Notes: a model not told the origin generated them from the sequence alone. DNA of 32,000 nt from an uncultured bacterium (GCA_963704705.1 OY969931.1:1200001-1232000), one strand, 5' to 3'; numbered from the stretch's first letter, positions 1 to 16,728 are shown. Made by a program: numbers and translations.

Positions 1-78
1 CTTGGTGATTTGATTATGAAGGATATAAAAGAACCGCCAAAGGAAATAGATGAAGATCCATTTTTACATGAAGAATAA
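1..78 (+). CDS. 3' end of a cassette ORF (partial, runs off the left edge)
   Basis: Frame 1 is open from base 1 to TAA at 76-78 (..LGDLIMKDIKEPPKEIDEDPFLHEE*), directly followed by attC1. Confidence 0.3.
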   Translation, partial: LGDLIMKDIKEPPKEIDEDPFLHEE

Positions 79-82
79 CATC

Positions 83-225
83 GCATAACAGCGAACTATC
101 CGGTTCGGGCTTTTTTGATGCGCGGCTTTGCGGGGCAAAAGCCTTCACCCAACTTTTTTTAATGGTGGCGCTGACGCGCTATTATACCACCGTAAAAAAG
201 TTCGTATAGTTTGCGCCCGTTATGT
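83..225 (+). repeat. attC site 1 (143 bp)
   Basis: R'' is GCATAAC (83-89) and R' is GTTATGT (219-225). Terminal stem GCGAACTAT (91-99) pairs with ATAGTTTGC (206-214). Inner arm is GGTGG..hairpin..ATTATACCACC (181-191). Confidence 0.85.
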
Positions 226-258
226 GACATCCATTTTTTCTCATTGTAGAATAACGAC

Positions 259-828
259 ATGGAAAAAGAACCAATTACACCGATTGAAATAGTAAAAGCA
301 GATATTAAACTTTTTGAAAAATATCAAAAAGAAATTTTGGAAATCGAAAGAGAACTTATCGAAAATAGTTCATCAGCATATCTTATTGATGAACAAGATG
401 AGCTCGATTTTATGTTAGATGCGTTTAAAAAAGGAGGTTATGCTTATTTAGTAATGGAAAATGAAAAAGTTACTGGGTTTTTAGTTGTTGGGCCACTCGA
501 TGATGGGACTGAATTGCCTGAAACAGTTACTCAAAATTATCCAATTGCAAATTGCCTTCATATCAAAGTAATGTACATAAAAAATACAAGCAAAGGAATT
601 GGTAGTGAAATGATGGAAAAATTAATTCAAGAACTAGATAAAGAACAATGGAAATATTTATTTGTAAGAACTTGGATTGATCCACCAAATGAAGGAGCTA
701 TTAATTTTTATACAAATCGAGCTGGCTTTGAAGCTGTTCCAAATGCAATAGTTGAATCAACAAAAAGAAAATTGGATGGAAGTGGAACACTCCAAATAAA
801 AAGACAATATTTTTCAAAAAGGATATAG
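259..828 (+). CDS. GNAT-family N-acetyltransferase (cassette gene)
   Basis: 189 aa. Acetyl-CoA motif A-like SKGIGSEMMEKLI and C-terminal NEGAINFYTNRAGFE are typical of GNAT folds. ATG lies 34 nt after attC1. Confidence 0.8.
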   Translation: MEKEPITPIEIVKADIKLFEKYQKEILEIERELIENSSSAYLIDEQDELDFMLDAFKKGGYAYLVMENEKVTGFLVVGPLDDGTELPETVTQNYPIANCLHIKVMYIKNTSKGIGSEMMEKLIQELDKEQWKYLFVRTWIDPPNEGAINFYTNRAGFEAVPNAIVESTKRKLDGSGTLQIKRQYFSKRI

Positions 829-842
829 AAAAAATGGACATC

Positions 843-999
843 ACATAACAGGCGCATTAACGGTTCGGGTTTTTTTTGTCGGGCGGCCTAAAAGCACGCC
901 CAAAAATCCCTCACCCAACTTTTTTAACGGTGGTGACATGCCTTGCGGCATGTTATTATGCCACCGTCAAAAAGTTCGCTAATGCGCCGGACGTTAGCG
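843..999 (+). repeat. attC site 2 (157 bp)
   Basis: R'' is ACATAAC (843-849) and R' is GTTAGCG (993-999). Stem GGCGCATTA (851-859) pairs with TAATGCGCC (980-988). Near-identical to attC6. Confidence 0.85.
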
Positions 1000-1063
1000 G
1001 AAATTGGGCTGATTTTAAAAGCGACTTAATATATAATTCAAATAATTCTTAACCTAAAATTCT

Positions 1064-1642
1064 ATGAATCAAACATGGAAAATCATTGTCGCCGTCATTA
1101 TTACAGCAGTCGTTGTCGGAGGTGGCTTTTACTTCTGGCAACAGAGCAAGGAAGAAACTCCACAAGTTACTCGAAAAACCGAAGATCAAACACCAGCTCC
1201 AGCAGCTGAAACCGAAAAAACGTTCACTGGTAGCGGATTTACATTCACATACCCCGTAGAATATACAGCTGATAACAAAGGACTTTGGACAACGGACGGT
1301 TATCAAAGACATATAAATCCGCCTGAAGCTTGCGATACCTGCCAGATACCAGAAGTAGAAGTAAAAGCCACCACTTCAAATAAAACATTGGATCAACAAA
1401 TTATTGCTGATTATGACTTGCCAGGAACAACACTGGCAGAGATGTCTAAACAAACTGGCATCAAATATGAGCAAATAAAAATCGGCGACAATGATTTTAT
1501 CAAAATCACGGTTAGCGACATGTTCGATGTAACAGGATATTACACAAAACATAATAATCAGATTGTCGCTTTTAAAGTTTATTTGACGGAAAAAGATAAT
1601 AAGGCATTAAAAGATATTATTTCGACATTGAAGTTTAATTAA
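1064..1642 (+). CDS. Hypothetical membrane-anchored protein (cassette gene)
   Basis: 192 aa with an N-terminal TM helix (WKIIVAVIITAVVVGGGFYFW) followed by a soluble domain. No family recognised. Confidence 0.7.
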   Translation: MNQTWKIIVAVIITAVVVGGGFYFWQQSKEETPQVTRKTEDQTPAPAAETEKTFTGSGFTFTYPVEYTADNKGLWTTDGYQRHINPPEACDTCQIPEVEVKATTSNKTLDQQIIADYDLPGTTLAEMSKQTGIKYEQIKIGDNDFIKITVSDMFDVTGYYTKHNNQIVAFKVYLTEKDNKALKDIISTLKFN

Positions 1643-1657
1643 AATCAGCCCAACATC

Positions 1658-1775
1658 AGATAACAAAGGCTATGCGGCTACGATCCTTTCAGTCGCTACG
1701 CCCATATTGTGCGGTGGTGGCCCTTCGCGGCCAATTATACCACCGCACAACATCGCATAGCCTTGGCCGTTAAAT
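1658..1775 (+). repeat. attC site 3 (118 bp)
   Basis: R'' is AGATAAC (1658-1664) and R' is GTTAAAT (1769-1775). Stem AAGGCTATGCG (1666-1676) pairs with CGCATAGCCTT (1754-1764). Inner arm is GGTGG-GGCCcttcgcGGCC-AATTATACCACC. Confidence 0.8.
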
Positions 1776-1877
1776 GAAATTGATTATATTTATGTCGTAT
1801 GATAAATTTTGCTCCTTTAACAAATAAAGCATGAATAAAGTTTTGCATTTAAACATTGAAACATCTGAACCAGGTAA

Positions 1878-2090
1878 ATGGTTAGATATATTACATGTCT
1901 AAGATTAATGCATCTCGATGGCGTTGATACTATGGCCGATGATGGCAATACAAAAGCAGTTTTAGCAGTTTGTTTAGAAAAAGGAGCTGAAGTAAAAAGT
2001 GCTATTCAAAGGCATGGATTAACAATTACTGACGAATGTGAGAAAGGATTTTACAGCACCTCTAGAATTAAGATGATCAACTTCATTTAA
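1878..2090 (+). CDS. Hypothetical small protein (cassette gene, start uncertain)
   Basis: 70-codon ORF whose TAA lies inside the R'' of attC4. An overlapping 23-codon ORF (1831-1902) in another frame makes the true start, or a frameshift, unclear. Confidence 0.3.
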   Translation: MVRYITCLRLMHLDGVDTMADDGNTKAVLAVCLEKGAEVKSAIQRHGLTITDECEKGFYSTSRIKMINFI

Positions 2091-2185
2091 GAGGCGTATA
2101 TTCAGTTCCGCTCCTTCGTCGCTCCACCCAAATTTACATTTCGCTATGCTCAATGTAAACTTTGTATATACACCAGACGTTAAAT
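2085..2185 (+). repeat. attC site 4 (101 bp, short variant, R'' mutated to AAG)
   Basis: R'' is ATTTAAG (2085-2091) and R' is GTTAAAT (2179-2185). Stem GGCGTATAT (2093-2101) pairs with ATATACACC (2166-2174). Lacks the GGTGG/ATTATACCACC arm. Confidence 0.7.
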
Positions 2186-2312
2186 GCAATTTATTTTTTA
2201 TCCTCCCTGTTTTCTAAAGACTTTTTCTTCTTGACTTGTTGAAATATAATTACCGGCATGAAAAACAACCGGTCCAAAAACTGCAAAAAATCCAGCAGTT
2301 TCTTTATCGTTA

Positions 2313-2624
2313 TTATAAATAGAAACCAAAACACATTAAACCTATAGTTAGTATAAAAGCTAACCACATACCTATACTTTCATTTCTTGTATTTGATCTA
2401 ATAATTATATTTTCTAAACTTTGTCTATGATTAGATTGCTTTTCGGCCATTGTAATTATTCTATCGGCTGCTCCAGGAATAATTTTTTCATATCCTTCTA
2501 GAATATTTGGGGGGGGTAATGGCCCAGAAAAAGAAGTTGCTACAGCTGTAAATCTTTTTTCTATCCTTTGGCTTGGTTTATTTTGCAGTTTTTGAGTACT
2601 GCTTTTCTTCTTCTTTTTGTTCAT
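2313..2624 (-). CDS. DUF2335-like membrane protein (inverted cassette gene)
   Basis: 103 aa. SGPLPPPNILEGYEKIIPGAADRIITMAEKQSNHRQ matches my memory of the DUF2335 signature. A C-terminal TM helix is present. Overlaps the upstream ORF by 47 nt. Confidence 0.6.
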   Translation of the reverse strand: MNKKKKKSSTQKLQNKPSQRIEKRFTAVATSFSGPLPPPNILEGYEKIIPGAADRIITMAEKQSNHRQSLENIIIRSNTRNESIGMWLAFILTIGLMCFGFYL

Positions 2625-2808
2625 AATTATCTATTGAAATATAAATTGCATTTCCAACATTATCCCAATCATTTTTTAAGGCAAAATAATCTGCATCCTC
2701 CTGATAGCAGTATTCGTCTAATTTACCATATAAATCAATAACCCTACTTGCACCCTTAAAAAATGTTGGTGAAGTGCATAATTTAGTAGTTTTTAATTCG
2801 TCATTCAT
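2578..2808 (-). CDS. Hypothetical small protein, first gene of an inverted two-gene cassette
   Basis: 76 aa ORF with ATG 28 nt downstream of an extended -10 promoter. No family confidently recognised. Confidence 0.5.
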   Translation of the reverse strand: MNDELKTTKLCTSPTFFKGASRVIDLYGKLDEYCYQEDADYFALKNDWDNVGNAIYISIDNYEQKEEEKQYSKTAK

Positions 2809-2835
2809 AATAAATATTTAGTCGGTCGGATTAAA

Positions 2836-2864
2836 ATTATAACAAAATATTTTTTAATCAACAA
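2836..2864 (-). promoter_or_regulatory. Sigma70-type promoter for the inverted cassette operon
   Basis: On the minus strand: TTGTTG (2864-2859), 17 nt spacer, then TGT-TATAAT (2844-2836). This is an extended -10. Confidence 0.5.
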
Positions 2865-2892
2865 TCCAATTAATAAATCAAAAATAAACTTC

Positions 2893-3025
2893 ATTTAACA
2901 GGTGTATGTTCGGCTCCACTCGCTATGCTCGTTTCGCCCATATTTGCCTTGTTCGCTTTGGCGGTGATAAAATTATACCGCCACGCTCACGGCGGCAAAC
3001 ATCGCACATACACCGGCCGTTGTAT
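2893..3025 (+). repeat. attC site 5 (133 bp)
   Basis: R'' is ATTTAAC (2893-2899) and R' is GTTGTAT (3019-3025). Stem GGTGTATGT (2901-2909) pairs with ACATACACC (3006-3014). Near-identical to attC11. Confidence 0.85.
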
Positions 3026-3108
3026 GCCATCGGATAGGGGGATTTTGTTAATTTAGCCCTTTACTTTTCTTGTAAAATATAGCAGAATAGCATCCTTTGA
3101 ATCCATTT

Positions 3109-3755
3109 ATGCCAGAAAACAAAATACTTCTTACAGGATTTGAGCCATTCGGCCCTTATCGCTACAACGTAGCTGAACAGCTAGTTGAAGCGCTAAATGG
3201 TGAAATAATTGATGTACGGCAGAACACACGCCTGCAAATAATTGGCGTAAGCTTGCCAATTAACTTTGGTACTTTTAGAAAAATTCTCGAAGCAGCAATT
3301 GAAAGCACTAAACCAAAAATAGCATTAGGATTAGGAATGGATTTTAAAGACCACGATCATCTCTCGTTAGAATTAGCTGCTCATTCAATTCCAAATTACT
3401 GCAATGATATTCAAGATACTGAATGTAATATTGGACCAAATGGCTCCTAGATAGTTTGCCAGAAACAATAAGAATTCCTAATGAAGAACACATAAAAAGT
3501 GCCATTTCTGCTATTAATGGAATTGAGTTTTCTGAAGATGCAGGGCGGCATATGTGCGAAACTGTGCTAAGAGATCTTATAAGAATGAGTGAAGGTGGCA
3601 AAAAATTTCAACCGGGTTTTATACATTTGCCGCATACAGCTGATCTTCTATCAGATTCAGTACATTTAGATAAACATGAGAAATCAATGTCAATCGAGCA
3701 GCAAATAGCAATAGTAAAAAAAGTAATAAAAAGTATTGGCACTTTTTATTTATAA
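3109..3755 (+). pseudogene. pcp: Pyroglutamyl-peptidase I (peptidase C15) family gene, frameshifted
   Basis: The N-terminal part (ILLTGFEPFG.., LELAAHS) ends at TAG 3448-3450. The C-terminal part (..SEDAGRHMCETVLRDLI.., FIHLPH) continues in another frame that is open from 3429. The Pcp-like motifs are split across the two frames. Confidence 0.7.
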
Positions 3756-3781
3756 CAAAATCCCTTTTTCAATCCAACAGC

Positions 3782-3934
3782 ATACAACAGGCGCATTAAC
3801 GGTTCGGGCTTTTTTGACGGCTGGCTTCGCACAGCCAAAAATCCCTCACCCAACTTTTTTAACGGTGGTTTCACGCCTTGCGGCATGTTATTATACCACC
3901 GTCAAAAAGTTCGCTAATGCGCCGGACGTTAGGC
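3782..3934 (+). repeat. attC site 6 (153 bp)
   Basis: R'' is ATACAAC (3782-3788) and R' is GTTAGGC (3928-3934, perfect GTTRRRY). Stem GGCGCATTA (3790-3798) pairs with TAATGCGCC (3915-3923). Confidence 0.85.
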
Positions 3935-3956
3935 GGCATCTCTTAATCAATCTATT

Positions 3957-4253
3957 ATGAAATTATATACAAAAATATTGTTAGCATTATTTATTGGAAT
4001 AGTTCTCACCTTACTTTCAATATCATATAAATCATCTTATGAATTTCATGTACTTGAATACAGTAGTTATGAAACACGACCTTCCTGGGGATTCCCTTTG
4101 CAGTATGTATACGATAATGATGTTAGCTCACCAGTAATGTCAATGAATGAAGAAGATACATTCATTTTTACATATATGATTGGGGATGTATTAATTTACT
4201 CATTTTTGGCTTTCATACCATTTTTAATATTTAAAAAAAGAGACACCGCCTAA
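3957..4253 (+). CDS. Hypothetical two-TM membrane protein (cassette gene)
   Basis: 98 aa with hydrophobic N- and C-terminal segments. The stop TAA is embedded in the R'' GCCTAAC of attC7. Confidence 0.6.
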   Translation: MKLYTKILLALFIGIVLTLLSISYKSSYEFHVLEYSSYETRPSWGFPLQYVYDNDVSSPVMSMNEEDTFIFTYMIGDVLIYSFLAFIPFLIFKKRDTA

Positions 4254-4365
4254 CAGCAAACTATCCGGTTCTGCTCCTTGCAGTCGCTACACCCAACTTT
4301 GCCAGTGGTGGCGCTTCGCGCTATTATACCACTGTCAAAGTTCGTATAGTTTGCGGACGTTAGGT
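4248..4365 (+). repeat. attC site 7 (118 bp)
   Basis: R'' is GCCTAAC (4248-4254, perfect RYYYAAC) and R' is GTTAGGT (4359-4365, perfect GTTRRRY). Stem GCAAACTAT (4256-4264) pairs with ATAGTTTGC (4346-4354). Confidence 0.9.
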
Positions 4366-4373
4366 GGCATAAT

Positions 4374-4411
4374 ATAAAAAAAGACCCACTTTTGGATAAG
4401 CAGGTCTTTTT
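4374..4411 (-). terminator. Possible intrinsic terminator of the inverted lipoprotein gene
   Basis: AAAAAGACC (4378-4386) pairs with GGTCTTTTT (4403-4411) around a 16 nt loop. The minus-strand transcript ends in a U-run. The stem is weak, with only 4 GC pairs. Confidence 0.4.
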
Positions 4412-4426
4412 AGTAAACTTAAATAA

Positions 4427-5037
4427 TTAAAATTCGTAAGTAACCGTTTCTTTCTGTTTATCGCCATCGGTCACCGATAAAAGCATTGTTCCGTGTTCAG
4501 ATTTATATAATTTTTTATAATGCTGCTTAACTGTAGCTAAACCTATTTTTAGTTCATCTTTAATAAACATTTCGCATGTAATAGCCTCTGGATCTGTATC
4601 ATTCACAATCAAAATCGTAGCTTGAACCGGAGCAGATTCCATAAAAATTGCAGGCCAATAAGCTAAGAAATTTTCATTACCACAACCTGTGTAACCAACT
4701 TTTACTGTTATTGTATCTCCTTCAATAGTCACCCAATTGCCACAAGTTTCATTGCCGATAGAAAATGATCCTTTTTTGAGATCTTCAAATGATTTATCAC
4801 TTCCTAAAGGATAAGCACATCACTTACAGCAACTGGCTCCGATGGCGACATATCCTTCGGTTCCACAACGGTTGGTTCCTCAGACACATCTATCATTATA
4901 TCTGAATCTTCTGGTTGCGTGTCAGTAGTTGAAACTGTTGGTTGTTGTTCTTCCTGAACCGGCTGAAACCAAGAACAGCCAGAGAGTGTTACTGTAGCAA
5001 TTGATAATAAAGCTACAAGCGTAATTACTTTTTTCAT
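4427..5037 (-). pseudogene. Lipoprotein gene, apparently frameshifted (inverted cassette gene)
   Basis: ORF 5037-4804 encodes a lipoprotein signal (LSGC|SWF) plus an acidic linker and stops at 4804. The second ORF's frame is open from about 4800 and reads coding-like (..GSDKSFEDLKKGSFSIGNETCGNWVTIEGD..) with no ATG before GTG 4732. This suggests a single gene broken near 4800. Confidence 0.5.
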
Positions 5038-5130
5038 AAGTGTATATGGTTAAAGTTACTTATTTAATAACAACCTTAGATAACAATAACACATTTTTTA
5101 TAAAAAGTTGCGATATTTTTATATTGCGCC

Positions 5131-5278
5131 ACCTAACAGGCGTATATCCAGTTCCGCTCCTTTCACTCGCTCCACCCAAATTAGCCTTTCCTCATTCCGG
5201 TGGTTTCACGTCTGACGACGTGATATTATACCACCGTCACTCGTCAGGCTAACTTTGTATATACGCCGGACGTTGTAA
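5131..5278 (+). repeat. attC site 8 (148 bp)
   Basis: R'' is ACCTAAC (5131-5137) and R' is GTTGTAA (5272-5278). Stem GGCGTATAT (5139-5147) pairs with ATATACGCC (5259-5267). Inner arm is GGTGG-TTTCACGTCtgacGACGTGA-TATTATACCACC. Confidence 0.85.
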
Positions 5279-5296
5279 GAAATTTTTAAATTATTC

Positions 5297-5814
5297 ATGA
5301 AAAAAGACAATTTTATTGAAAAATTACCGTTAGTAAAATTCTCAACTTATTCTGAAATTCAAAAACAATATGTGTTAGATTTTGGTGAGAACATTATTAA
5401 GTTAATGAAAAATTTTTCTCCAACACAAGTAGATGGCAATAATTTCTTAAAAGCATGCAGGCATATTTGGTTCTGGGAACTTGGAGCATATGAAGTAGTC
5501 CAACAATTGACGTTGAAGGTTGTTTTGATGATAAAACCAAGACAAAAATAAATGCACTTAAAATAAATCTCGCAAAGCTGAGAATGCCATTCGCAAAACA
5601 AGAACTTAGAGGAGAGAAGAAAAGAAAATTCGTGGAAACAGAACCTTCAGTTACTTCATTTGCAGAGGGGGATATAGGCTTTACTATAAAAGGAGAAAAA
5701 TTTTACTTTAAACCACTCTATAATGAGTTTAAAAGAGTAATTGGTGGTATCAAACCAAAAAATATAAATGCAAAGATTGAGAACCAAAAGGAAAAAAGTA
5801 AAAAACAAAATTAA
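5297..5814 (+). pseudogene. Hypothetical cassette gene split by a frameshift
   Basis: ORF 5297-5551 and ORF 5584-5814 overlap as open frames. The second frame is open from 5494 (SSPTIDVEGCFDDKTKTKINALKINLAKLRMPFAKQ..). This fits one roughly 170-codon gene with a frameshift around 5494-5520. Confidence 0.5.
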
Positions 5815-5824
5815 AAAAAACTTC

Positions 5825-6246
5825 TTACAACAGCGGGCTAGCCGGTTCGCTCACTAAAATTATTATTTTTTAAAATCTATATTATGAACAATATCTTAAT
5901 AATCATCCTGATCATTGTTAATATCTTTCTTTTATTTGCAATTCTCAGGATTCACAAACAACTAAAATGGATAAAGAAAACATATGACAGAAACTTTAAA
6001 CTAGCTCACGGAATATTGAATACCATAAACAAAAAAACAAAAGCTGATGAAAAATTGATATTACAAAAAAATGGGGCAATGAGGTTCTGGAGTCCTGATG
6101 AATATCAAGAAACTGTTGAAAGAATAGAGGATGTTAAAGAAATTCTTGAAAAATCGATCGAAAAGGATAAAAAATAATAATTTTTACGCTCGCTTACCCA
6201 AGTTGTCACAACTGTAACAACTTCGTCTAGCCCGCGACCGTTGTAC
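5825..6246 (+). repeat. attC site 9, composite (422 bp), with a 330 bp ORF-bearing insert inside its first internal arm
   Basis: R'' is TTACAAC (5825-5831) and R' is GTTGTAC (6240-6246). Stem GCGGGCTAG (5833-5841) pairs with CTAGCCCGC (6227-6235). The 5' arm CCGGTTCGCTCAC and the 3' part ACGCTCGCTTACCCAAG.. are separated by positions 5855-6185. A perfect 16 bp inverted repeat bounds the insert: 5856-5871 AAAATTATTATTTTTT and 6169-6184 AAAAAATAATAATTTT. Confidence 0.6.
5884..6177 (+). CDS. Hypothetical N-terminally anchored small protein nested inside attC9
   Basis: 97 aa with an N-terminal TM helix (ILIIILIIVNIFLLFAIL) and a charged helical tail. The double stop TAATAA lies within the right arm of the 16 bp inverted repeat. 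Confidence 0.5.
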   Translation: MNNILIIILIIVNIFLLFAILRIHKQLKWIKKTYDRNFKLAHGILNTINKKTKADEKLILQKNGAMRFWSPDEYQETVERIEDVKEILEKSIEKDKK

Positions 6247-6360
6247 GAAAAATACTTCCCGGCTTATTTCTGAAATCCATAACTTTTAATGCAAGTAAAC
6301 AAATTGGATTTTCTTTTTTTGATAGAGGGGAGCTTCCTGCCTTTGGCAGGAAGTAATGAA

Positions 6361-6396
6361 AAATAAATATAAAATGGCTCGCCTTACGGCGAGCCA
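6361..6396 (-). terminator. Intrinsic terminator downstream of the inverted DUF4256 gene
   Basis: TGGCTCGCC (6375-6383), loop TTAC, GGCGAGCCA (6388-6396). The minus-strand transcript continues UUUUAUAUUUAUUU. Confidence 0.5.
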
Positions 6397-6425
6397 AAGA
6401 AAAATAAAGTTCAAAAACCAATTTT

Positions 6426-6842
6426 TTAGACCCTTAGCCAGCCGTGGAAGCCCCTATCGTCATAAGGATAGTTCGGAGGGTTCCCAGACACGGTGACACC
6501 ACCGTGATCACGAAACGCAGCGAGCGCAACCTTTTTGTTTCTTGTTTCTTCCGGGGTATCAACCCATGACCATGAGTCACTAAATAAGCCTTTAACAAGC
6601 CTAGCAAGTTTCTCAATTTGCTTTTCGTTTAAAAGACCTCCAAGACCCATATCTTTTTTCGCCATATCAACCGCGTTACCTTTTGGGTTATATCCTTGCC
6701 TTTCAGCTATTTCCTGTCCTTTACGGTCATAACAAACCATTCTTCGTCCTTTAGGGCTTTCTTTTGAACAATCCCAGAATTCATATTCTCCCGTTTCTTC
6801 AACAAATTCCACTACATCAGGTTCACCGCCGGTTCTTTCCAT
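6426..6842 (-). CDS. DUF4256 family protein (inverted cassette gene), 5' end apparently disrupted
   Basis: MERTGGEPDVV..ESPKGRR..CYD..RGFHGWLRV matches my memory of DUF4256. The frame stays open upstream to 6949 (VPLKARFEANLKRHKDIEWSRVEARLKEAAPEKLWSLNE) without a start codon. Confidence 0.7.
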   Translation of the reverse strand: MERTGGEPDVVEFVEETGEYEFWDCSKESPKGRRMVCYDRKGQEIAERQGYNPKGNAVDMAKKDMGLGGLLNEKQIEKLARLVKGLFSDSWSWVDTPEETRNKKVALAAFRDHGGVTVSGNPPNYPYDDRGFHGWLRV

Positions 6843-6949
6843 TTCATTGAGTGACCATAGTTTTTCAGGAGCTGCTTCTTTAAGTCTTGCTTCAACTCGT
6901 GACCATTCAATATCTTTGTGGCGTTTTAAGTTTGCTTCAAAACGAGCTT

Positions 6950-7294
6950 TTAATGGTACTTAAAAGCTGTTCTGTTTGTTCGGGTAATTAAAGTGCGTTC
7001 AGGCTTTTCAACTTCCTCTTTTTCTTTTTTCTCAACTTGCAATTCATTATTATCATCATCTGTTGAATTACCTCTCTGTTCCAATAATAATGCATTAACT
7101 GCAGCCCTAACGGTTGGGTCATCAGGGAGCGGATCTACTCCCATTTTTGCATTTTCGATCATAAGTTCAAGTTTCAACCTATCTTCCGGATCCAGATGCC
7201 CTAAATCCATTACTTCTTCATACCCCAACTCTGTTGCCATATAATCATTATATGCATCTTCGTTATTCACTGGTTTTGGTGTAGATTCATTCAT
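6950..7294 (-). CDS. Hypothetical acidic protein (inverted cassette gene)
   Basis: 114 aa starting from ATG 7294 (MNESTPKP..). The longer TTG start at 7354 coincides with the -35 box of its own promoter. Confidence 0.5.
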   Translation of the reverse strand: MNESTPKPVNNEDAYNDYMATELGYEEVMDLGHLDPEDRLKLELMIENAKMGVDPLPDDPTVRAAVNALLLEQRGNSTDDDNNELQVEKKEKEEVEKPERTLITRTNRTAFKYH

Positions 7295-7325
7295 TTTATA
7301 AGTGTTACTTATAACAAGGTTTTTA

Positions 7326-7354
7326 ATTCTAACTATATTTCGGCAAATTGTCAA
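7326..7354 (-). promoter_or_regulatory. Sigma70-type promoter of the inverted cassette operon
   Basis: On the minus strand: TTGACA (7354-7349), 17 nt spacer, TAGAAT (7331-7326). It lies about 32 nt upstream of ATG 7294. Confidence 0.6.
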
Positions 7355-7512
7355 GTATAAATTATTATGGTCTTATATACAAACATTTTATGGTGTTTTG
7401 GCTCGCAAAATTTACCCCTTTTATTCCCCTCTTTTACTCGCCAAAACTAATCCAATTTGTATTTCCAGATAATAATAAGGCATTTAAAAGAAAAATCGGG
7501 AAAGTATTCATC

Positions 7513-7654
7513 GTACAACAGCTGACTATGCGGTGAGGGCTTTTTTTCGTGCGGCTAAAGCACGCATCAAAGCCCTCACCCAACTTTGACCGTGGTGAGC
7601 ACTTCGTGCTAATTTTACCACGGTCAAAGTTCGCATAGTCAGCGGACGTTGTAT
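7513..7654 (+). repeat. attC site 10 (142 bp)
   Basis: R'' is GTACAAC (7513-7519) and R' is GTTGTAT (7648-7654). A 12 bp perfect stem GCTGACTATGCG (7521-7532) pairs with CGCATAGTCAGC (7632-7643). Arms: GTGAGGGCTTT..AAAGCCCTCAC, and CTTTGACCGTGGT-GAGCACttcgGTGCT-AATTTT-ACCACGGTCAAAG. Confidence 0.9.
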
Positions 7655-7723
7655 TTAACCTTCTTGAGATTGACCTTTTTGTATTTTTATGTTATTGTTT
7701 AAATAGATATTTAAATTTAAATT

Positions 7724-8311
7724 ATGGCAGATTCATCAATTGATAAAGGATCACAAGGACAACCTCAGTCACCTGATCGTACTCCAAATTGGAATGATAT
7801 TGAACAATGGATTGCAGGTTTGTCTGGAGAACAAAAACAGAAAGTTAAAGATTTATTAGCAGAAACAGAAGTTAATAAACCTACTGAAAGCCCTATAGAC
7901 TTAGATAAACCTTCTACAGTTTATAGTAGAGTTCAAATTATTCTATCTGAGGCTGGATTTACTAATATTAGTTTTACAGAAACAGGTTTAACAGGTTATT
8001 ACGGTCCTGAAAACGATTTAAGTAGAAAGTGTATATTTAATATGAGTTTTCATAAAAATACAAAAATAACCAGTACTAATACCAATCTAGGTGTAATAAA
8101 CTGTTCATTTGTTGTTGCAAGAGCAGTACATGGTACTCATCGAAACTGGACTATATATTTTGATAATGAAAAAACTTTAAAAGAACAATTATCAACTTTA
8201 GCATCCGATCTTCGAGATACTGCCAAAAAAGATATTACATTTGAAGAAATTGAAGAAGATATTCATTCAAAAATATCAATGAAAAATGCTGAATTATTGG
8301 GACAAAATTAA
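7724..8311 (+). CDS. Hypothetical protein (cassette gene)
   Basis: 195 aa ORF with ATG 70 nt after attC10. No family recognised. Confidence 0.65.
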   Translation: MADSSIDKGSQGQPQSPDRTPNWNDIEQWIAGLSGEQKQKVKDLLAETEVNKPTESPIDLDKPSTVYSRVQIILSEAGFTNISFTETGLTGYYGPENDLSRKCIFNMSFHKNTKITSTNTNLGVINCSFVVARAVHGTHRNWTIYFDNEKTLKEQLSTLASDLRDTAKKDITFEEIEEDIHSKISMKNAELLGQN

Positions 8312-8318
8312 TAATTTC

Positions 8319-8463
8319 AAATACAACAACGCCTAACAGGTGTATGTTCGGCTACACTCGCTTTGCTCGTTTCGCCCATATTTGTTTTGTTTGTTTAGGT
8401 GGTGATAAAATTATACCGCCACGCTCACGGCGGCAAACATCGCACATACACCGGACGTTGGCC
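8319..8463 (+). repeat. attC site 11 (133 bp core plus an extra upstream R''-like box)
   Basis: The proximal R'' is GCCTAAC (8331-8337). The distal AAATACAAC (8319-8327) is the box complementary to this cassette's start. R' is GTTGGCC (8457-8463). Stem GGTGTATGT (8339-8347) pairs with ACATACACC (8444-8452). Confidence 0.85.
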
Positions 8464-8511
8464 GAAATATTTTGTGGTATAATATGTTTGATATTCTTTA
8501 AATTATAAACT

Positions 8512-8853
8512 ATGCCGTTTCTCTACTTCCCGATCATTCTACTGATCATCGAATTCCTTATTATCATGCCAATCCCGCTCTTTGTAGCAGGCAGGTTGAT
8601 GAAATTACCAATAAAATATACTGAAGCTTTATGGATTACTTTATTCGCTGGTATTATTGGATCACTTGCCTCAATGGCACATATCTTAGTGGGTTTAGCT
8701 GTGTTTTTAGGAATTCTTTATTATGAGTTGAATAATAAGTTTCATCCTAAACCAATAAAGATTATTTTAATAATTCTTATAGATCTTGCTGTAGTTATTG
8801 GAATAGAGTTTCTAAAACCTTATTTATTATATGGTGGACTCTCACTAATGTAG
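8512..8853 (+). CDS. Hypothetical polytopic membrane protein (last cassette)
   Basis: 113 aa, almost entirely hydrophobic segments. Confidence 0.6.
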   Translation: MPFLYFPIILLIIEFLIIMPIPLFVAGRLMKLPIKYTEALWITLFAGIIGSLASMAHILVGLAVFLGILYYELNNKFHPKPIKIILIILIDLAVVIGIEFLKPYLLYGGLSLM

Positions 8854-8865
8854 TTGAAATACTTC

Positions 8866-8920
8866 GGCCAACAGGCGTATATACTGTTCCGCTACTCTCC
8901 ATGTAAACTCTGTTTATTTA
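8866..8920 (+). repeat. attC site 12, degenerate terminal remnant
   Basis: R'' is GGCCAAC (8866-8872), followed by AGGCGTATATACTGTTCCGCTACTCTC..CATGTAAACTCTG, which aligns to attC4 and attC8. The middle is deleted, the 3' stem has decayed, and there is no GTT core. Confidence 0.5.
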
Positions 8921-8961
8921 TAAAAGGAGTATGATGTATTTAATTAACCTTACTGTAAACT

Positions 8962-9117
8962 ATGATAAAAGGAAATTTTATTGGTGCGGCAATCGTTGCA
9001 ATAATCTACACGGTCTATATTTTAATGAACCCCCTTCCAACAAAATGGCAAATGGTGTTGGTATTAGTGGTTCTTAATGCTTTGACTATCGTGTTGATGT
9101 CTTTTGCATTCAAATAA
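8962..9117 (+). CDS. Possible 51-aa two-TM mini-protein upstream of the CPBP gene
   Basis: Hand-translated: MIKGNFIGAAIVAIIYTVYILMNPLPTKWQMVLVLVVLNALTIVLMSFAFK*. It falls below the ORF-track length cutoff. Confidence 0.3.
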   Translation: MIKGNFIGAAIVAIIYTVYILMNPLPTKWQMVLVLVVLNALTIVLMSFAFK

Positions 9118-9200
9118 AAACACCAATAATCTACTTTAGTAAAAGCTCTTGAGAACTTATGATATTATATAAATGTCATAAATTTTGCTAAAGAATAAAT

Positions 9201-9971
9201 ATGGCCATAAAAAATTTTATTAACTGGAAATTATACTTCTTATTACTGGCGGCAAGCGTAATTTCAATTGTTGCGATTATGCCGTATGTACTAACCATTC
9301 AGGCAGATGCATTAAAAAACCTCCCGATTTCATTGCCTTTATTGGTATTAATTTCAGTTATTCAAAGCACCGTGCTATTTGCAATTTTTCTTTTAATTGG
9401 TTTAAAACTTGCAAAAACACTTGGATTGCGAATTCCCATTCTTGAAAGTTTTATTGCCAAAAAAAAGCCAGATGTAGATGTTAAATCGATTATTAAATTA
9501 TCTGTATTGCTCGGTATTTTGTCAGGGATAGCAATTGTTTTATTTGACTTTGTATTTTCAAAACTGGGTGTAAATTTGATGGAACAGGTACATGCTCCTG
9601 CATGGCAGGGATTTTTAGCTTCATTCTATGGCGGAATAAGTGAAGAAATTGTGATGAGATTATTTTTCATGGCTTTAATAATCTGGCTAATTAGCAAAAT
9701 ATTTAGATTAAAAGGCAAAGCGATTGAAAACAATTTACTAATGTGGACGGCAATTATTATTGCCGCGATTATATTCGGTCTTGGACATTTACCAATTACT
9801 GCAGCAATAACAACTATAACCCCAATGGTGTTCTTACGTGCCATTTTACTAAACGGAATCGGGGGCGTTGTGTTTGGATGGCTCTATTGGAAAAAAGGCC
9901 TGGAATCAGCCATGATTGCTCATTTCTCAGCAGATATAATATTACATGTATTGCTGCCGTTATTGTTTTAA
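9201..9971 (+). CDS. CPBP (CAAX protease / Abi) family intramembrane metalloprotease
   Basis: 256 aa polytopic protein. EE motif (GISEEIVMRLFF), FGLGHL and AHFSADI match the three CPBP signature motifs. Confidence 0.8.
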   Translation: MAIKNFINWKLYFLLLAASVISIVAIMPYVLTIQADALKNLPISLPLLVLISVIQSTVLFAIFLLIGLKLAKTLGLRIPILESFIAKKKPDVDVKSIIKLSVLLGILSGIAIVLFDFVFSKLGVNLMEQVHAPAWQGFLASFYGGISEEIVMRLFFMALIIWLISKIFRLKGKAIENNLLMWTAIIIAAIIFGLGHLPITAAITTITPMVFLRAILLNGIGGVVFGWLYWKKGLESAMIAHFSADIILHVLLPLLF

Positions 9972-10023
9972 AATAAACTCCATTCTACAAGGTCGCATAA
10001 TGTGGTCAAAACGGAGGGACCAA

Positions 10024-10173
10024 ATGGATATTCTGAATGGTAAAAAGGACTTGGGGTTGCTGGACTCGATCTGCGCGATGATGGAAAGCATCATGATGGG
10101 TCTGGCCAGCATTCCCCTGGGTATCATGCATGAGCTCGGCCTCATCAAGATCCCACTCAGATTCTGGATCTGA
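10024..10173 (+). CDS. Possible 49-aa ORF inside a GC-rich island
   Basis: ATG is preceded by GGAGGG 6 nt upstream. About three quarters of its third codon positions are G/C (hand count), unlike all neighbouring genes. It could instead be non-coding. Confidence 0.3.
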   Translation: MDILNGKKDLGLLDSICAMMESIMMGLASIPLGIMHELGLIKIPLRFWI

Positions 10174-10244
10174 CCCCTTCTCTCCCCTGCCTGCTGCTCC
10201 CTAATTCTTGGGGCGTGGCAGGCATCTATTCTAACTAGAGGGTA

Positions 10245-10272
10245 TTGACAAATTTAGCTGTTTATTTATAAT
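10245..10272 (+). promoter_or_regulatory. Sigma70-type promoter of the 10302-11922 operon
   Basis: TTGACA (10245-10250), 16 nt spacer, TATAAT (10267-10272). It lies 30 nt upstream of ATG 10302. Confidence 0.55.
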
Positions 10273-10301
10273 AGTAATCTTTAGACTATAATTACTTAAT
10301 T

Positions 10302-10595
10302 ATGAGTAGAAGATTAGAAGAATTTGCAGAATCTCGGGGGATTAGTCCGACTGATGCCGGAAGCCTGATTCTTGCAGCAGCGGCTGAAAATTATTTAACG
10401 GATTTGCCCGCAGATGAACTTAAGGAACTTGGTATTCATGAAGGCGATGATGCAGTAACCGTAATAGAAAAGATCAATCAAAAGCTTATGGTGATCACTG
10501 CAGAACTCGATACTTTAAGAACGAATCATGACCCAGATGAAGGAGCAGTACTTGTTAAAAAATACATGTTATTTGATATTTTAGAGTTGCTATGA
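10302..10595 (+). CDS. Hypothetical acidic protein
   Basis: 97 aa. Its stop overlaps the next start (ATGA). Confidence 0.6.
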   Translation: MSRRLEEFAESRGISPTDAGSLILAAAAENYLTDLPADELKELGIHEGDDAVTVIEKINQKLMVITAELDTLRTNHDPDEGAVLVKKYMLFDILELL

Positions 10596-10972
10596 ATGAA
10601 AATCCTCCAATAAATGAATTATCGAATCCGGATAGGAACAGTATTGATGCTTATGGTTTTACAGTAGATTATTTGAATGAATTACCATCCCGGGACTTTG
10701 AAGAAAATCCTGCAGTTTTCGCCATGTATATGGAATATTATAAAAGCGGCGAAGCTAAAACATATTCTGAAAAATATAAAGACAGACCGGAAATCATAGA
10801 AGCCAGTGATCCTCAAATAGTTGCAAAAATCGATTCAATAATGCTTCAAATTATTGAAGCTGCCAAAAGAGATAATGAAGAAAAAGTTAAAGAATTAATT
10901 AAAACCGCAACTTTTAAATTGGATTGTGTTATTGTATTCCAGTATGAATATTTTACTAACCTAATAATATGA
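10592..10972 (+). CDS. Hypothetical protein
   Basis: 126 aa. Translationally coupled on both sides through ATGA overlaps. Confidence 0.6.
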   Translation: MNENPPINELSNPDRNSIDAYGFTVDYLNELPSRDFEENPAVFAMYMEYYKSGEAKTYSEKYKDRPEIIEASDPQIVAKIDSIMLQIIEAAKRDNEEKVKELIKTATFKLDCVIVFQYEYFTNLII

Positions 10973-11922
10973 AAAAAATGATCGCTCTGGGTATTGCAAT
11001 TACCCTGACACTCGGACTTGGCGGATGTAACTGGTTTGCTCCTGCTGAAACCGAAACAACAACCGAACCTGAAACGAAAGTAATGGATGAAAAACCTGTA
11101 ACTTCAGAAATAGTCGATACAGAAGACTATATTTATGACAAGCAAACAGGCGAATTGCTAAATGCTAACACTGATGAAGTTCTTTATGAAAATCCGGATC
11201 ATCCTGACCTTGTTTTGTATGTTCTTGGATTGGATGGCGACAAGTTGATTCTATTTAAAACAGGCAGCGATAATTCTCCTGGTCCTGGTTTTGCATATGA
11301 AGTTTGGTTTAGTGAACCGGTTGCAGACAGCCTCTATTATCTTGATCTAAAAAATCCTGAAAAAGGTTTGATGACATATGTTGTTCCAGAAGCTAAAAAA
11401 GAACAGGAAAGAGTAAAACTTGAAAACTTTGTTAATCAATTTGATGAAGAAGGACCAGCTGAACCGCTTCTTTATTCAACTGATGGTGTTGATACAACAG
11501 TAACAAAAGATGAATCAACTTTTGACCTTAGTGCTGAACATTTTGAAGCAATGGCTGATGAATGCGGTACAACTTATGATGCTGACCACTTTGTTAATCT
11601 TGTTGATGATTACGCAAACACACCTAAATACACATATTCATTTAAATATAACGGTGAAAGCCAGGACCCTGACACCTTCACAGTAACTGTTCTTTTAAAC
11701 AGAATGGAATATGCTAATCTTGATGAAGTAAAAGCTGACTTTGATCAGTGTTTTGCAGGAGGAGATATGTATCCTATCGCTGTAACAAACTCTTTAATAC
11801 TATTTGAAAGTTCATGCGGCACAGGATTTGATGACGGCTCAGGAAATCCAAATGGATGCGCTGAAATTAAAGATGTGGTTGGACCAACACTTGAATTGAA
11901 TTCACAGTATGGTTCTTTATAG
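10969..11922 (+). CDS. Lipoprotein of unknown function
   Basis: 317 aa with signal peptide and lipobox LGLGGC|NWF, followed by a T/E-rich linker. Confidence 0.75.
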   Translation: MKKMIALGIAITLTLGLGGCNWFAPAETETTTEPETKVMDEKPVTSEIVDTEDYIYDKQTGELLNANTDEVLYENPDHPDLVLYVLGLDGDKLILFKTGSDNSPGPGFAYEVWFSEPVADSLYYLDLKNPEKGLMTYVVPEAKKEQERVKLENFVNQFDEEGPAEPLLYSTDGVDTTVTKDESTFDLSAEHFEAMADECGTTYDADHFVNLVDDYANTPKYTYSFKYNGESQDPDTFTVTVLLNRMEYANLDEVKADFDQCFAGGDMYPIAVTNSLILFESSCGTGFDDGSGNPNGCAEIKDVVGPTLELNSQYGSL

Positions 11923-11934
11923 AAAGAAATAGCT

Positions 11935-11970
11935 AAAGCCGGCGGATATATTTATTCGCTGGCTTTTTAT
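11935..11970 (+). terminator. Intrinsic terminator
   Basis: AAAGCCGGCG (11935-11944) pairs with CGCTGGCTTT (11957-11966) with one G.U pair, followed by TTATTT. Confidence 0.6.
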
Positions 11971-12028
11971 TTACTTGCAGCTAAAAACACACTTTGATAC
12001 ATTAAATATAATAAGTAACCCTTTAATA

Positions 12029-12148
12029 ATGTTAGAAGCAATTTTTAGTCCGGCAACCTGGGGATCACCTATTGGCCTTGGGATTTTTTTGATTTGCTTT
12101 GCACTTTTTGTTTATATATTAAGTCTTGCAAACAAGAATAAAAAATGA
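12029..12148 (+). CDS. Possible 39-aa single-TM mini-protein coupled to the second CPBP gene
   Basis: Hand-translated: MLEAIFSPATWGSPIGLGIFLICFALFVYILSLANKNKK*. Its TGA overlaps ATG 12145 (ATGA). Confidence 0.35.
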   Translation: MLEAIFSPATWGSPIGLGIFLICFALFVYILSLANKNKK

Positions 12149-12891
12149 TTAATAAATCTATTTCTCTAAAAATTTACTTTATTCTGATTTTAATTCTGGG
12201 AATTCTTGCTGCTGTAAGTATTTATATCCCCTATTCCACTATGCTTGAAACGGCTGAATTACCTGCATCAAAACCAGTAATAGCTGCGGTGAGTTTTCTA
12301 ATAATGTTGGTTTTGTATGGAGGGCTGGGATTAATCGGTCTTAAATTATCGAAGAAATTGGGCTTTCCTGATCTTTGGGATATTAACATCAATAATAAAC
12401 AAAGATTATTAAAACCTTTGATTTGGGGTGCTGTTATCGGAGTGATATTTATTATTTCGGATTTGGTTTTTAGCAATGTTTTTGGAATAGATAGGATTCC
12501 GCATCCTGCTTTTCCTTTTTCAATAATCGCTTCAATAAGCGCGGGAATTGGCGAAGAGCTGATGTTTAGATTGTTTTTTATTTCATTTTGGGTCTGGCTT
12601 ATTTCAAAAGTTATTCTAAGAGGAAGATGGCAAAATGGGATTTTCTGGATAATAGCTGTGATTTCGGGATTGCTATTTGCTGCCGGTCACATACCTTCTG
12701 TTCTGGTTTTATATGATTTTAAATATGTATCTGATATACCAGCAGCTTTAATGGCTGAAATATTTATATTAAATACCCTGCTTTCTCTGCCGGCAGCACA
12801 TTTTTTTAGAAAATACGGTATTTTGGCAGCTATGGGATTACACTTGTGGACCGATATAGTCTGGCATGTAATTTATGGATTTTTCTCATGA
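12145..12891 (+). CDS. CPBP (CAAX protease / Abi) family intramembrane metalloprotease, paralog 2
   Basis: 248 aa. GIGEELMFRLFF, FAAGHIP and GLHLWTD are CPBP motifs. Confidence 0.8.
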   Translation: MINKSISLKIYFILILILGILAAVSIYIPYSTMLETAELPASKPVIAAVSFLIMLVLYGGLGLIGLKLSKKLGFPDLWDININNKQRLLKPLIWGAVIGVIFIISDLVFSNVFGIDRIPHPAFPFSIIASISAGIGEELMFRLFFISFWVWLISKVILRGRWQNGIFWIIAVISGLLFAAGHIPSVLVLYDFKYVSDIPAALMAEIFILNTLLSLPAAHFFRKYGILAAMGLHLWTDIVWHVIYGFFS

Positions 12892-13340
12892 GATACAATC
12901 ACACACAAATCGGTTATTTAATGATCGTAATTACAATACTTATTGCAGGTTTATTCGGTTTTATATTAATACAGGCCGGTGTAATAATAGCTATGCTGCT
13001 GATTATGATATTTATTCTATTTATTTTAGTTTCTTTTTCGACATTAAATGTAAGTATTGATGAAGAAAATTTAAAAATAAGATTTGGCTATGGAATCTAC
13101 AAAAAATCATTTAAATTAAATGAAATAGCTTCATCAAAAATAGTGCGGAATCACTGGTATTTTGGATGGGGAATCAGATTCTGGTTTTGGCCTCCGACGT
13201 GGATCTATAATGTTTCAGGTTTTGATGCTGTTGAATTAAAGATGAAAGATGGCAGCAGATTCAGGATTGGGACTGATGAACCTGAAAAACTTGAAAATTC
13301 AATATTACAATCAATAAATTGGAAGGGGGTGGCGCAATGA
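12888..13340 (+). CDS. Membrane protein with a C-terminal soluble (PH-like?) domain
   Basis: 150 aa from ATG 12888, which forms an ATGA overlap with the CPBP stop. Two TM helices are followed by LNVSIDEENLKIRFGYG... Confidence 0.65.
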   Translation: MRYNHTQIGYLMIVITILIAGLFGFILIQAGVIIAMLLIMIFILFILVSFSTLNVSIDEENLKIRFGYGIYKKSFKLNEIASSKIVRNHWYFGWGIRFWFWPPTWIYNVSGFDAVELKMKDGSRFRIGTDEPEKLENSILQSINWKGVAQ

Positions 13341-13522
13341 AAAACAATGGAAAAGAATGGCTTTACGGAATAATTTCCGAAGTCTCATTATTTGCATTTT
13401 TATACTATGTTCAATACTTATTGAATGTAGACGGAAACCTATGGCTTAGCACTTTAATTCTATGGGCATTATTAAATATTGCAATTGTATTATGCCCGGT
13501 TGTAAGAAAATGCTATAAATAA
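13337..13522 (+). CDS. Small two-TM membrane protein
   Basis: 61 aa from ATG 13337, which forms an ATGA overlap with the preceding stop. Confidence 0.5.
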   Translation: MKNNGKEWLYGIISEVSLFAFLYYVQYLLNVDGNLWLSTLILWALLNIAIVLCPVVRKCYK

Positions 13523-13609
13523 TATATAGTATTCGCCCCGCTTAGCGGGGCTCATGCTACGCTCGCGATATGTTTTCGCTCGCGAGAGACTCGCTAAAGC
13601 TTCGTCTCT

Positions 13610-15289: not shown

Positions 15290-15376
15290 TTCTGATGCAA
15301 CAGAAATTCAAAACACGTTGCTTCAATGCATATAACGTAATACAATATAGGGAGTTATTATTAAATCCCCTTTCAA

Positions 15377-16147
15377 ATGAGTAATCTCATCAAAAACCTG
15401 ATCGGAGTTGTAGCGATTGTGGCTGTTTTGGCATTTGCCTATCTAAGCTGGCAATATGTAAAAGTTTACGACAGGTCAAGCGAACCAACTAACTACAGAA
15501 GCTTTTATGTACAGGCTGAAGGTGAAGCTGTTGGAGTGCCTGATGTTGCACAGTTCAGTTTCGATGTAATAACACAGGGTGGTACGGATATTTCAAAATC
15601 TCAAACTGACAATACAGAAAAAATGAATGCTGTTCTTGAATATGTAAACGGCCAGGGAATTGATAAAAAAGATATTAAAACTACCGCTTACAATATTCAA
15701 CCACGATATACTAGTAACAGATGTGTGGAAGGTGTTTGTCCTCCACCGCAAATCGTTGGATATACTGTTTCACAATCAGCTCAGGTTAAGATACGTGATT
15801 TCAGCAAAATAAGCGGCATGTTACAGGCTGTTGTTGATAATGGCGCAAACTCTGTTTCTCAATTAAGCTTTATTATTGATGATACAACTGATGTTGAAAA
15901 CGAAGCACGTGCTGATGCAATTCAAAAAGCACAAGCTAAAGCTGAATTAATAGCAAAAGAAGCAGGATTCTCTGTTGGACGAATTCTTGAAATAAATGAA
16001 AATTTCTATCCTGTTTATGCTCAGCCAAAAATGGAAATGGCTGTAAGTTCTTATGATAGTTCTGCGGGGGGTGCTCCGGCTCCATCAATCGAACCAGGCT
16101 CTCAGGATATTACTGTCCAGATAAACATAAGATACGAGATTAACTAA
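15377..16147 (+). CDS. SIMPL / DUF541 family periplasmic protein
   Basis: 256 aa with an N-terminal anchor. GYTVSQSAQVKIRDFSKISGMLQAVVDNGANSVSQLSF and the ARADAIQKAQAKAELIAKEAG pattern are typical of SIMPL proteins. Confidence 0.8.
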   Translation: MSNLIKNLIGVVAIVAVLAFAYLSWQYVKVYDRSSEPTNYRSFYVQAEGEAVGVPDVAQFSFDVITQGGTDISKSQTDNTEKMNAVLEYVNGQGIDKKDIKTTAYNIQPRYTSNRCVEGVCPPPQIVGYTVSQSAQVKIRDFSKISGMLQAVVDNGANSVSQLSFIIDDTTDVENEARADAIQKAQAKAELIAKEAGFSVGRILEINENFYPVYAQPKMEMAVSSYDSSAGGAPAPSIEPGSQDITVQINIRYEIN

Positions 16148-16157
16148 TCTTTAAAAA

Positions 16158-16718: not shown

Positions 16719-16728
16719 TAAATTAAAC

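Follow-up and report, generated by a model that had tools for sequence, protein, structure and literature searches.

Here we report that positions 1-8940 of a 32,000-nt stretch of DNA from an uncultured bacterium (GCA_963704705.1 OY969931.1:1200001-1232000; the whole stretch is referred to as the window) very likely belong to a large integron-type cassette array on the chromosome of a Patescibacterium (candidate phyla radiation, CPR), of which they form the distal part. An initial annotation, generated by a model from the sequence, had proposed an integron-type array with related, long and branched attC sites. This proposal is supported by the complementarity between cassette ends and by reshuffling at the GTT of the 3′ box.

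Twelve repeats were found at positions 83-8940, all on the + strand: ten are complete, one is split by an open reading frame (ORF) and one is decayed at the array end. The same twelve co-oriented repeats had been marked in the initial annotation, and every one of them was recovered. The repeats were scored with a covariance model, R1, the seed of which consisted of nine window sites and one site of Logan contig L001, i.e., the model was derived from these very sites; the nine window seed sites gave 72-118 bits. The sites are as follows (scores are those of R1).

Site 1, 83..225, + strand: 143 nt, from GCATAAC to GTTATGT; 101.4 bits; three-way-junction fold.
Site 2, 843..999, + strand: 157 nt; 101.5 bits.
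Site 3, 1658..1775, + strand: 118 nt; 108.3 bits.
Site 4, 2085..2185, + strand: 101 nt, short type, with AAG for AAC and without the ATTATA bulge; outside the R1 seed, 58.7 bits (E = 2e-15).
Site 5, 2893..3025, + strand: 133 nt; 88.7 bits; 87% identity to site 11.
Site 6, 3782..3934, + strand: 153 nt; 97.1 bits; 94% identity to site 2 across 104 nt.
Site 7, 4248..4365, + strand: 118 nt; 117.6 bits.
Site 8, 5131..5278, + strand: 148 nt; 72.2 bits; its subfamily also has members in contig L064 and, at 10198-10358, in L126, a single-cell genome of Patescibacteria.
Site 9, 5825..6246, + strand: split site, with boxes and a 9-bp stem (GCGGGCTAG / CTAGCCCGC) around a 97-aa ORF (5884-6177).
Site 10, 7513..7654, + strand: 142 nt; 117.1 bits; the most regular three-way junction.
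Site 11, 8321..8463, + strand: tandem 5′ boxes, ATACAAC (8321-8327) and GCCTAAC (8331-8337); 93.9 bits.
Site 12, 8866..8940, + strand: decayed, short-type site with intact 5′ box and L″ and mutated L′ and 3′ box, at the distal array end.

As annotated, the AAC of the 5′ box is present in 10 of 11 window sites and replaced by AAG in site 4, the 3′ GTT is found in every complete site, and sites 7 and 11 carry GCCTAAC. The wider core boxes match the consensus RYYYAAC/GTTRRRY loosely (e.g., GCATAAC and GTACAAC). Stop codons had been described within the repeats, and this was confirmed for ORF 1878-2090, the stop codon of which (2088-2090) falls within the 5′ box of site 4, and for ORF 3957-4253, which ends (4251-4253) within the GCCTAAC of site 7. 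The attC subfamilies are 87-94% identical. The statement that most sites exceed the commonly quoted length range was too strong, since just 5 of the 10 complete sites are longer than 141 bp.

Some boundaries required revision. Site 9 has normal boxes and a normal stem, but it is not one long repeat as first read; it is split by a 0.3-kb insert carrying the 97-aa ORF. At the start assigned to site 11 there are two 5′ boxes, of which the one at 8331-8337 adjoins the stem and the outer one (8321-8327) alone matches the cassette start, at 10 of 13 positions. These tandem boxes suggest a past off-register or hybrid recombination event. The 5′ part of site 12 is real, but the site extends to ∼8940 and is decayed rather than cleanly truncated; no fitting 3′ half was found anywhere in the window, and no R1 match lies beyond it.

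The repeats are confined to the array. With filters off, no credible R1 match was detected at 9000-32000 or on the − strand. Within the window there was no sign of the dispersed pattern, typical of mobile or palindromic repeats, that the initial annotation had named as part of the outcome that would speak against its proposal. The motif ATTATRCCRCY is present in nine copies in the window (0.13 expected); eight are on the + strand within repeats, and the ninth is on the − strand just beyond site 7. No similar DNA was found in the plasmid and phage collections.

An integron cassette starts at the TT of a 3′ box and finishes at the G of the following one, and the 5′ box of its attC site is expected to be complementary to the beginning of the same cassette. 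The 3′ box plus 6 nt of each site was compared with the reverse complement of 6 nt plus the 5′ box of the following site. In the window, 10 of 11 cassettes matched at 9-12 of 13 positions, as did the eleventh when the outer box of site 11 was used; for site 2, the 5′ box and its flank were complementary to the start of their own cassette at 11 of 13 positions. When the 63 cassettes of the window and of three related contigs were considered, the mean was 10.6 of 13 positions, compared with 7.3 for the own 3′ box or for random pairs. The few low values marked places where an intervening site had been skipped.

Cassettes are permuted between contigs. On contig L001, the GNAT acetyltransferase cassette is preceded by a different attC site and an isochorismatase cassette, and identity to the window begins at GTTATGT; the GNAT gene keeps its downstream site, not its upstream one. 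A 192-aa protein encoded in the window is found, identical, twice on the conspecific ENA contig contig_101317 with other neighbours, and the 192-aa, 195-aa and 98-aa cassettes occur in other contexts on other contigs. Contig_101317 (24.3 kb) carries 35 co-oriented sites, is 99.0% identical to window 1-7650 and has 25 of its 35 sites upstream of the point where the window starts. Contig L130 (19 kb, 29 co-oriented sites), from the same sample, shares many cassettes with contig_101317 at about 92-99% identity, in a wholly different order. In 23 of 28 cases, the ends of the blocks shared by these two contigs are no more than 15 nt away from the G of a 3′ box (5.5% expected at random). These comparisons show that, as read from sequence, site-specific reshuffling occurs at the 3′ box, and they place the predicted attC crossover at G|TT, with a cassette running from TT to the next G.

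Two further observations were made on cassette boundaries. Before the 195-aa cassette, contig L129 (945-960) reads GTTA|TTGTAT and the window (7646-7660) reads G|TTGTAT, a boundary offset of 3 nt. Two arrays contain a cassette without an ORF in six or more copies, each of which immediately follows another attC site, at the following positions.

L127, 1931-2141, 2728-2937 and 4766-4972: copies of the ORF-less cassette.
L130, 595-804, 4337-4546 and 7673-7882: copies of the ORF-less cassette.

It consists of a ∼75-nt hairpin-forming segment and a ∼198-nt AT-rich attC site, and may be a small RNA or a promoter module.

Each site folds into a three-way junction composed of a terminal stem (R box, spacer and L stem), hairpin 1 and hairpin 2. 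The preference of the initial annotation for such a junction over a simple hairpin was correct for every site; branching itself is already known from the Vibrio cholerae repeat (VCR) sites (PMC2727003). Hairpin 1 is of variable length (20-60 nt). Enclosed in hairpin 2 are a smaller hairpin and an ATTATA that is unpaired and conserved. In the alignment, 79.7% of the cells were paired, compared with 31-39% after the partner columns were slid, in agreement with the reported covariation of both internal hairpins. The covariation reported for the terminal stem was also observed: in the L stem (helix 2), 8 of 11 pairs showed compensatory changes and 92.5% of the cells were paired, with a covariation score of 0.344 vs. 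0.03-0.10 when the partner columns were slid. The L″/L′ dyad symmetry is conserved as structure, not as sequence. Among 63 distinct sites, the length ranged from 101 to 201 nt (median 138 nt).

The bottom strand was the more stable one in 56 of the 63 distinct sites (DNA parameters; Wilcoxon p = 2e-10, a value that overstates independence because the sites are related to one another), so G·T pairs accumulate on the bottom strand. With RNA parameters, the minimum free energy of site 10 was −83 kcal/mol for both strands. The better folding of the bottom strand and the position of the crossover would agree with canonical bottom-strand recombination. In most sites, hairpin 2 contains a conserved unpaired ATTATACCACC (window 181-191, 3890-3900 and 5225-5235 are examples). 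On the bottom strand it reads GGTGGTATAAT, a perfect extended −10 element (TGnTATAAT) directed backwards, into the cassette; three reverse-oriented cassette genes (2808, 5037 and 7354) would lie in front of it, and it would be antisense to all others. TATAAT was considered as a promoter, and a sigma-70 scan gave no site-linked enrichment.

The UvrB protein encoded in the window is 90% identical to proteins of ‘Patescibacteria group bacterium’ and 80% identical to those of ‘Candidatus Peregrinibacteria’, and the source contig that encodes it is 1,374,545 bp long. By UvrB identity, the host is a Patescibacteria (CPR) bacterium near Peregrinibacteria, in keeping with the poorly studied AT-rich lineage suggested initially. 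The array is joined to housekeeping genes in the window. If the conspecific contig mirrors this genome, some 26 kb or more, corresponding to about 1.9% of the 1.37-Mb contig, would belong to the array, the proximal end of which would lie at least 16.7 kb to the left of the window. With 12 similar attC sites in the window and 35 on the conspecific contig, it falls among large arrays (more than about 20 cassettes).

In the mechanism that we propose, each unit contains a single gene or, in some cases, a pair of genes with an attC site behind, and the cassette begins at the TT of a GTTRRRY box and ends at the G of the one that follows. An IntI-type tyrosine recombinase would excise cassettes as circles and reinsert them; its substrate would be the bottom strand of attC in folded form, and strand exchange would take place at G|TT. 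The existence of such an integrase is suggested by the IntI-type core boxes together with the point of crossover, and we infer that the array is still active.

Several observations weigh against this reading. Pfam and tblastn searches revealed no integrase in the window, and none was found in about 75 kb of related array DNA, the contigs of which all begin or end inside arrays. The tblastn queries, IntI1 and XerD sequences, gave no match in any array locus. No attI site or Pc promoter was seen, and the proximal array end lies outside the DNA examined. The contigs reached through cassette proteins all start or stop within arrays, and synteny of the flanking CPBP protease led to an unrelated locus. 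The mini-array of the single-cell genome (L126) has no integrase within 10 kb. For everything read, the visible array is formally a CALIN, i.e., two or more attC sites in the absence of a neighbouring integrase (an attC-site cluster without an integron integrase). The label of sedentary chromosomal integron given in the initial annotation fits the array features; integrase, attI and Pc were not seen, and for these the label stays an inference.

The geometry of the sites points in the same direction. In canonical attC sites the spacer is about 5 nt on each arm and the R″-L″ arm has 2-3 extrahelical bases (PMC2727003). In a survey of 67 sites from the window and its relatives, the spacer of the R″-L″ arm was a single A after AAC in 65, and that of the R′-L′ arm was 4 nt (GGAC, GAAC, GGCC or AGAC) before GTT in 63. 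This 1-nt vs. 4-nt arrangement is a non-canonical crossover geometry. Nine perfect bp, then one interruption and short further pairing, were found in 41 of the 67 sites. Extrahelical bases were expected on the folded sites, but none was found on the R″-L″ arm, where the interruption after 9 bp was scored as a mismatch and not, as described (PMC2727003), as an extrahelical base. The sites have neither equal spacers nor the 2-3 extrahelical bases; unpaired features exist in another geometry, and the surplus bases are on the R′-L′ arm, beside the cleavage site. The complementarity of the R arms extends over 13 nt, i.e., 6 bases past the classical 7-nt box, with a fixed 2 × 2 mismatch.

The absence of an integrase from all array-bearing DNA examined, together with the decay of terminal site 12, would also be expected of a relic CALIN, in which the integrase has been lost and cassettes move by homologous recombination between attC sites or through an integrase acting in trans (e.g., by DNA uptake). 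The 87-94% identity of the attC subfamilies would support homologous exchange. We consider this explanation unlikely: block ends sit at the GTT of the 3′ box and not at arbitrary points of the repeat, the 13-nt complementarity of cassette end and start is maintained in 63 cassettes, and the site fold is maintained through compensatory changes. In addition, the failure to find an integrase on the related contigs carries no information, since none of them reaches the proximal array end.

Less probable still, at roughly half the weight of a relic, is a non-canonical recombinase to which the site geometry would be adapted, either an Xer-like enzyme or a tyrosine recombinase that is specific to the lineage and lacks the IntI extra domain. 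The 1 × 4 spacer, the absent canonical extrahelical bases, the long R arms with their fixed mismatch and the failure to see an IntI would be accounted for in this way, but the RYYYAAC/GTTRRRY boxes and the G|TT crossover are the signature of IntI sites, and we found nothing positive for another enzyme.

Repetitive extragenic palindromic (REP) sequences, bacterial interspersed mosaic elements (BIMEs) or miniature inverted-repeat transposable elements (MITEs), and transcribed 3′ structures such as terminators or regulatory RNAs, are likewise structured, repeated and intergenic, and here too the repeats lie directly 3′ of ORFs, are strongly structured and in a few cases fit a terminator-like pattern; this interpretation is nevertheless hardly tenable, because REP, BIME and MITE elements are dispersed and do not bound cassettes, whereas these repeats form one co-oriented array with recombining ends and are missing from the other 23 kb of the window, the 5′ and 3′ boxes of a repeat are parts of two separate, adjacent cassettes, identical genes are accompanied by the downstream and not the upstream repeat, and no Rfam family matches the repeats (Rfam holds no attC family). 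The complementarity, the permuted cassettes and the block ends at the 3′ box exclude REP/MITE-like and purely RNA-level elements.

Some sites, in the window and on related contigs, enclose a complete ORF (81-163 aa) in the apical loop of hairpin 1. Site 9 has normal boxes, L stem and hairpin 2, and the loop of its hairpin 1 encloses the 97-aa ORF. Contig L064 (1577-1984) carries the attC backbone of site 9 with an unrelated 81-aa ORF at the same position. Two sites of L130 (6433-7161 and 14470-15022) enclose a 163-aa asparaginase-family ORF and a 118-aa AdoMet-decarboxylase-family ORF, respectively; both loops are closed by an inverted repeat of 11 bp that is specific to the cassette, and both ORFs have a −10-like box in front. 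In the ORF-bearing sites of the window and L064, the flanking repeat is weaker and AT-rich. A quick literature search gave no report of genes inside attC sites. A whole gene in an attC hairpin loop bears on the open question of how cassettes are formed.

As a tentative proposal, with the balance of probability against it, Patescibacteria might own a branch of integrons with dozens of cassettes (at least about 2% of the genome), their own attC geometry, attC sites with an ORF in the loop and a differing recombinase. Under this joint and speculative proposal, (i) the geometry would combine a three-way junction, in which a conserved TATAAT of the bottom strand is unpaired, with the 1 × 4 spacer and R arms of 13 nt; (ii) the loop genes would be complete and self-promoted, with a cassette-specific closing stem, and could be a natural intermediate in the conversion of genes into cassettes; and (iii) the putative recombinase may differ from canonical IntI.

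The same attC family is also present in the Patescibacteria single-cell genome (a two-cassette mini-array), on a short metagenome contig and on a 34.6-kb contig binned as Promethearchaeota. A scan of genome contigs with the loose pattern GGTGGN{8,24}ATTATACCACC gave mostly chance hits: among the 120 matches listed, nearly all were chance single matches, and L064 and L119 were real. A tighter pattern gave no viral match and four metagenome matches, two of them real. L064 (JAEORV010000082.1), which is the same as L124 (Ga0180436_10000673), has four family sites beside an IleRS gene and was deposited in a Promethearchaeota (Asgard) metagenome-assembled genome (MAG). Since the family is otherwise found in Patescibacteria, either this contig is mis-binned or cassettes are shared across domains. 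The MAG that holds L064 is not in the supplements of the archaeal-integron paper (PMC9668308), and its binning is a caution for integron claims in archaeal MAGs, including the reported Asgard enrichment. The single-cell genome L126 contains four copies of a further repeat, TTGGAGCTCCCTCCTGGACACTAATCGAACCT, within 7.5 kb (3292, 4876, 9773 and 10700). An attC-like 5′ half (box and L″) precedes three of the four copies, and two copies flank the two-cassette mini-array; this repeat may be a decayed or alternative type of site.

The cassettes of the window encode small, mostly orphan proteins together with GNAT, DUF2335, peptidase C15 and DUF4256 proteins (Pfam), a content that is typical of integrons. 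Those with a recognisable product include the following.

220..993, + strand: cassette with a GNAT acetyltransferase gene (259-828); Pfam PF00583.
994..1769, + strand: cassette with the gene of the 192-aa secreted or membrane protein (1064-1642); weak PsbP-like match.
2180..3019, − strand: cassette with a reverse-oriented DUF2335 gene (2313-2624, plus 2578-2808); Pfam PF10097.
3020..3928, + strand: cassette with a pyroglutamyl peptidase C15 gene, split at 3447; Pfam PF01470 on both halves.

Window 131-7566 was compared with positions 6034-13697 of L131 (99.0% identity, ENA). The window has 19 single-event deletions, mostly of 1 bp, and 5 insertions. These indels split the genes of peptidase C15 (a 1-bp deletion at 3447), of a 203-aa protein (4811), of a 172-aa protein (5501) and of the DUF2335 protein (2228-2316), all of which are intact in L131, where the peptidase measures 215 aa and the DUF2335 protein 145 aa. 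The window frameshifts probably do not mark pseudogenes but stem from errors in the long-read consensus of the source assembly. The units of one or two genes described initially hold in part: several apparent two-gene units are single genes with 1-bp indels, intact in the 99%-identical contig. At 6340-6400, downstream of a reverse-oriented DUF4256 gene in a cassette, two strong GC-rich hairpins (GGAAGCTTCCTGCC.. and GGCTCGCC-TTAC-GGCGAGCC) look like a bidirectional terminator.

Beyond the array lies ordinary chromosome.

8941..32000, no strand assigned: CPBP proteases, glucan phosphorylase, LemA/DUF2207, UvrB and others, without attC and without recombinase.

Positions ∼18-32 kb of the window are syntenic with the 97%-related contig L135, and the contig of the 97% UvrB relative stops before it reaches the array position, from which about 9 kb separate it. 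Just past the array end, two paralogous intramembrane proteases of the CPBP/Rce1-like type are encoded (9201-9971 and 12145-12891); the first has many homologues on very short contigs, and the nearest relative on a long contig has no adjoining array. No tRNA or tmRNA gene, sought as an insertion target, was found at the array ends. On the − strand, 17793-18251 encodes a 152-aa secreted protein with poly-Thr runs and a C-terminal membrane anchor, in which three tandem 24-nt repeats (18018-18089) encode PAAEEPVA-like units.

Like the V. cholerae superintegron, the array is long and co-oriented, with small, mostly orphan cassettes, some of them duplicated and some ORF-less. Its attC sites resemble VCR sites in being mutually related, species-typical, longer than 100 nt and branched, with RYYYAAC/GTTRRRY boxes and a G|TT crossover; VCR sites have a 65-nt branched terminal structure (PMC2727003). 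In contrast to the Vibrio superintegron, the host is a Patescibacterium with a 1.37-Mb genome, and no integrase was seen in the DNA examined. The sites differ from canonical and VCR attC sites in their 1-nt vs. 4-nt spacers and in having no extrahelical G or T on the R″-L″ arm, and from VCR in the 13-nt R-arm complementarity, the unpaired ATTATA in hairpin 2 and the ORF enclosed in the loop of some sites. CALINs, a category of IntegronFinder, hold about 6 attC sites on average (PMC9024848), whereas 12 are in view here and 35 are on the conspecific contig; the label may be an artefact of the window edge.

Large surveys have detected integrons in many bacterial phyla and in archaeal MAGs (PMC9024848, PMC9668308). 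The archaeal MAG integrons were found by attC structure, mostly without integrase (6 IntI per 539 attC; Ghaly et al., 2022, PMC9668308). The present array resembles them in belonging to an uncultivated lineage and in that no integrase was seen, and L064, in an Asgard MAG, carries the same attC family. In contrast to them, the window is bacterial by UvrB (80-90% identity to Patescibacteria/Peregrinibacteria). No description of integrons in Patescibacteria/CPR was found in the searchable literature.

Integrons and branched attC sites are already known; what is unusual here is the 1-nt vs. 4-nt spacer, the 13-nt R arms and the ORFs in a hairpin loop. The sites retain the core logic of integrons and alter those features by which the strand is chosen in model integrons, and thus provide a natural test of which attC features are essential. 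CPR bacteria have very small genomes and are thought to be episymbiotic. An array that makes up about 2% or more of such a small genome would be a main site of accessory-gene turnover in the lineage.

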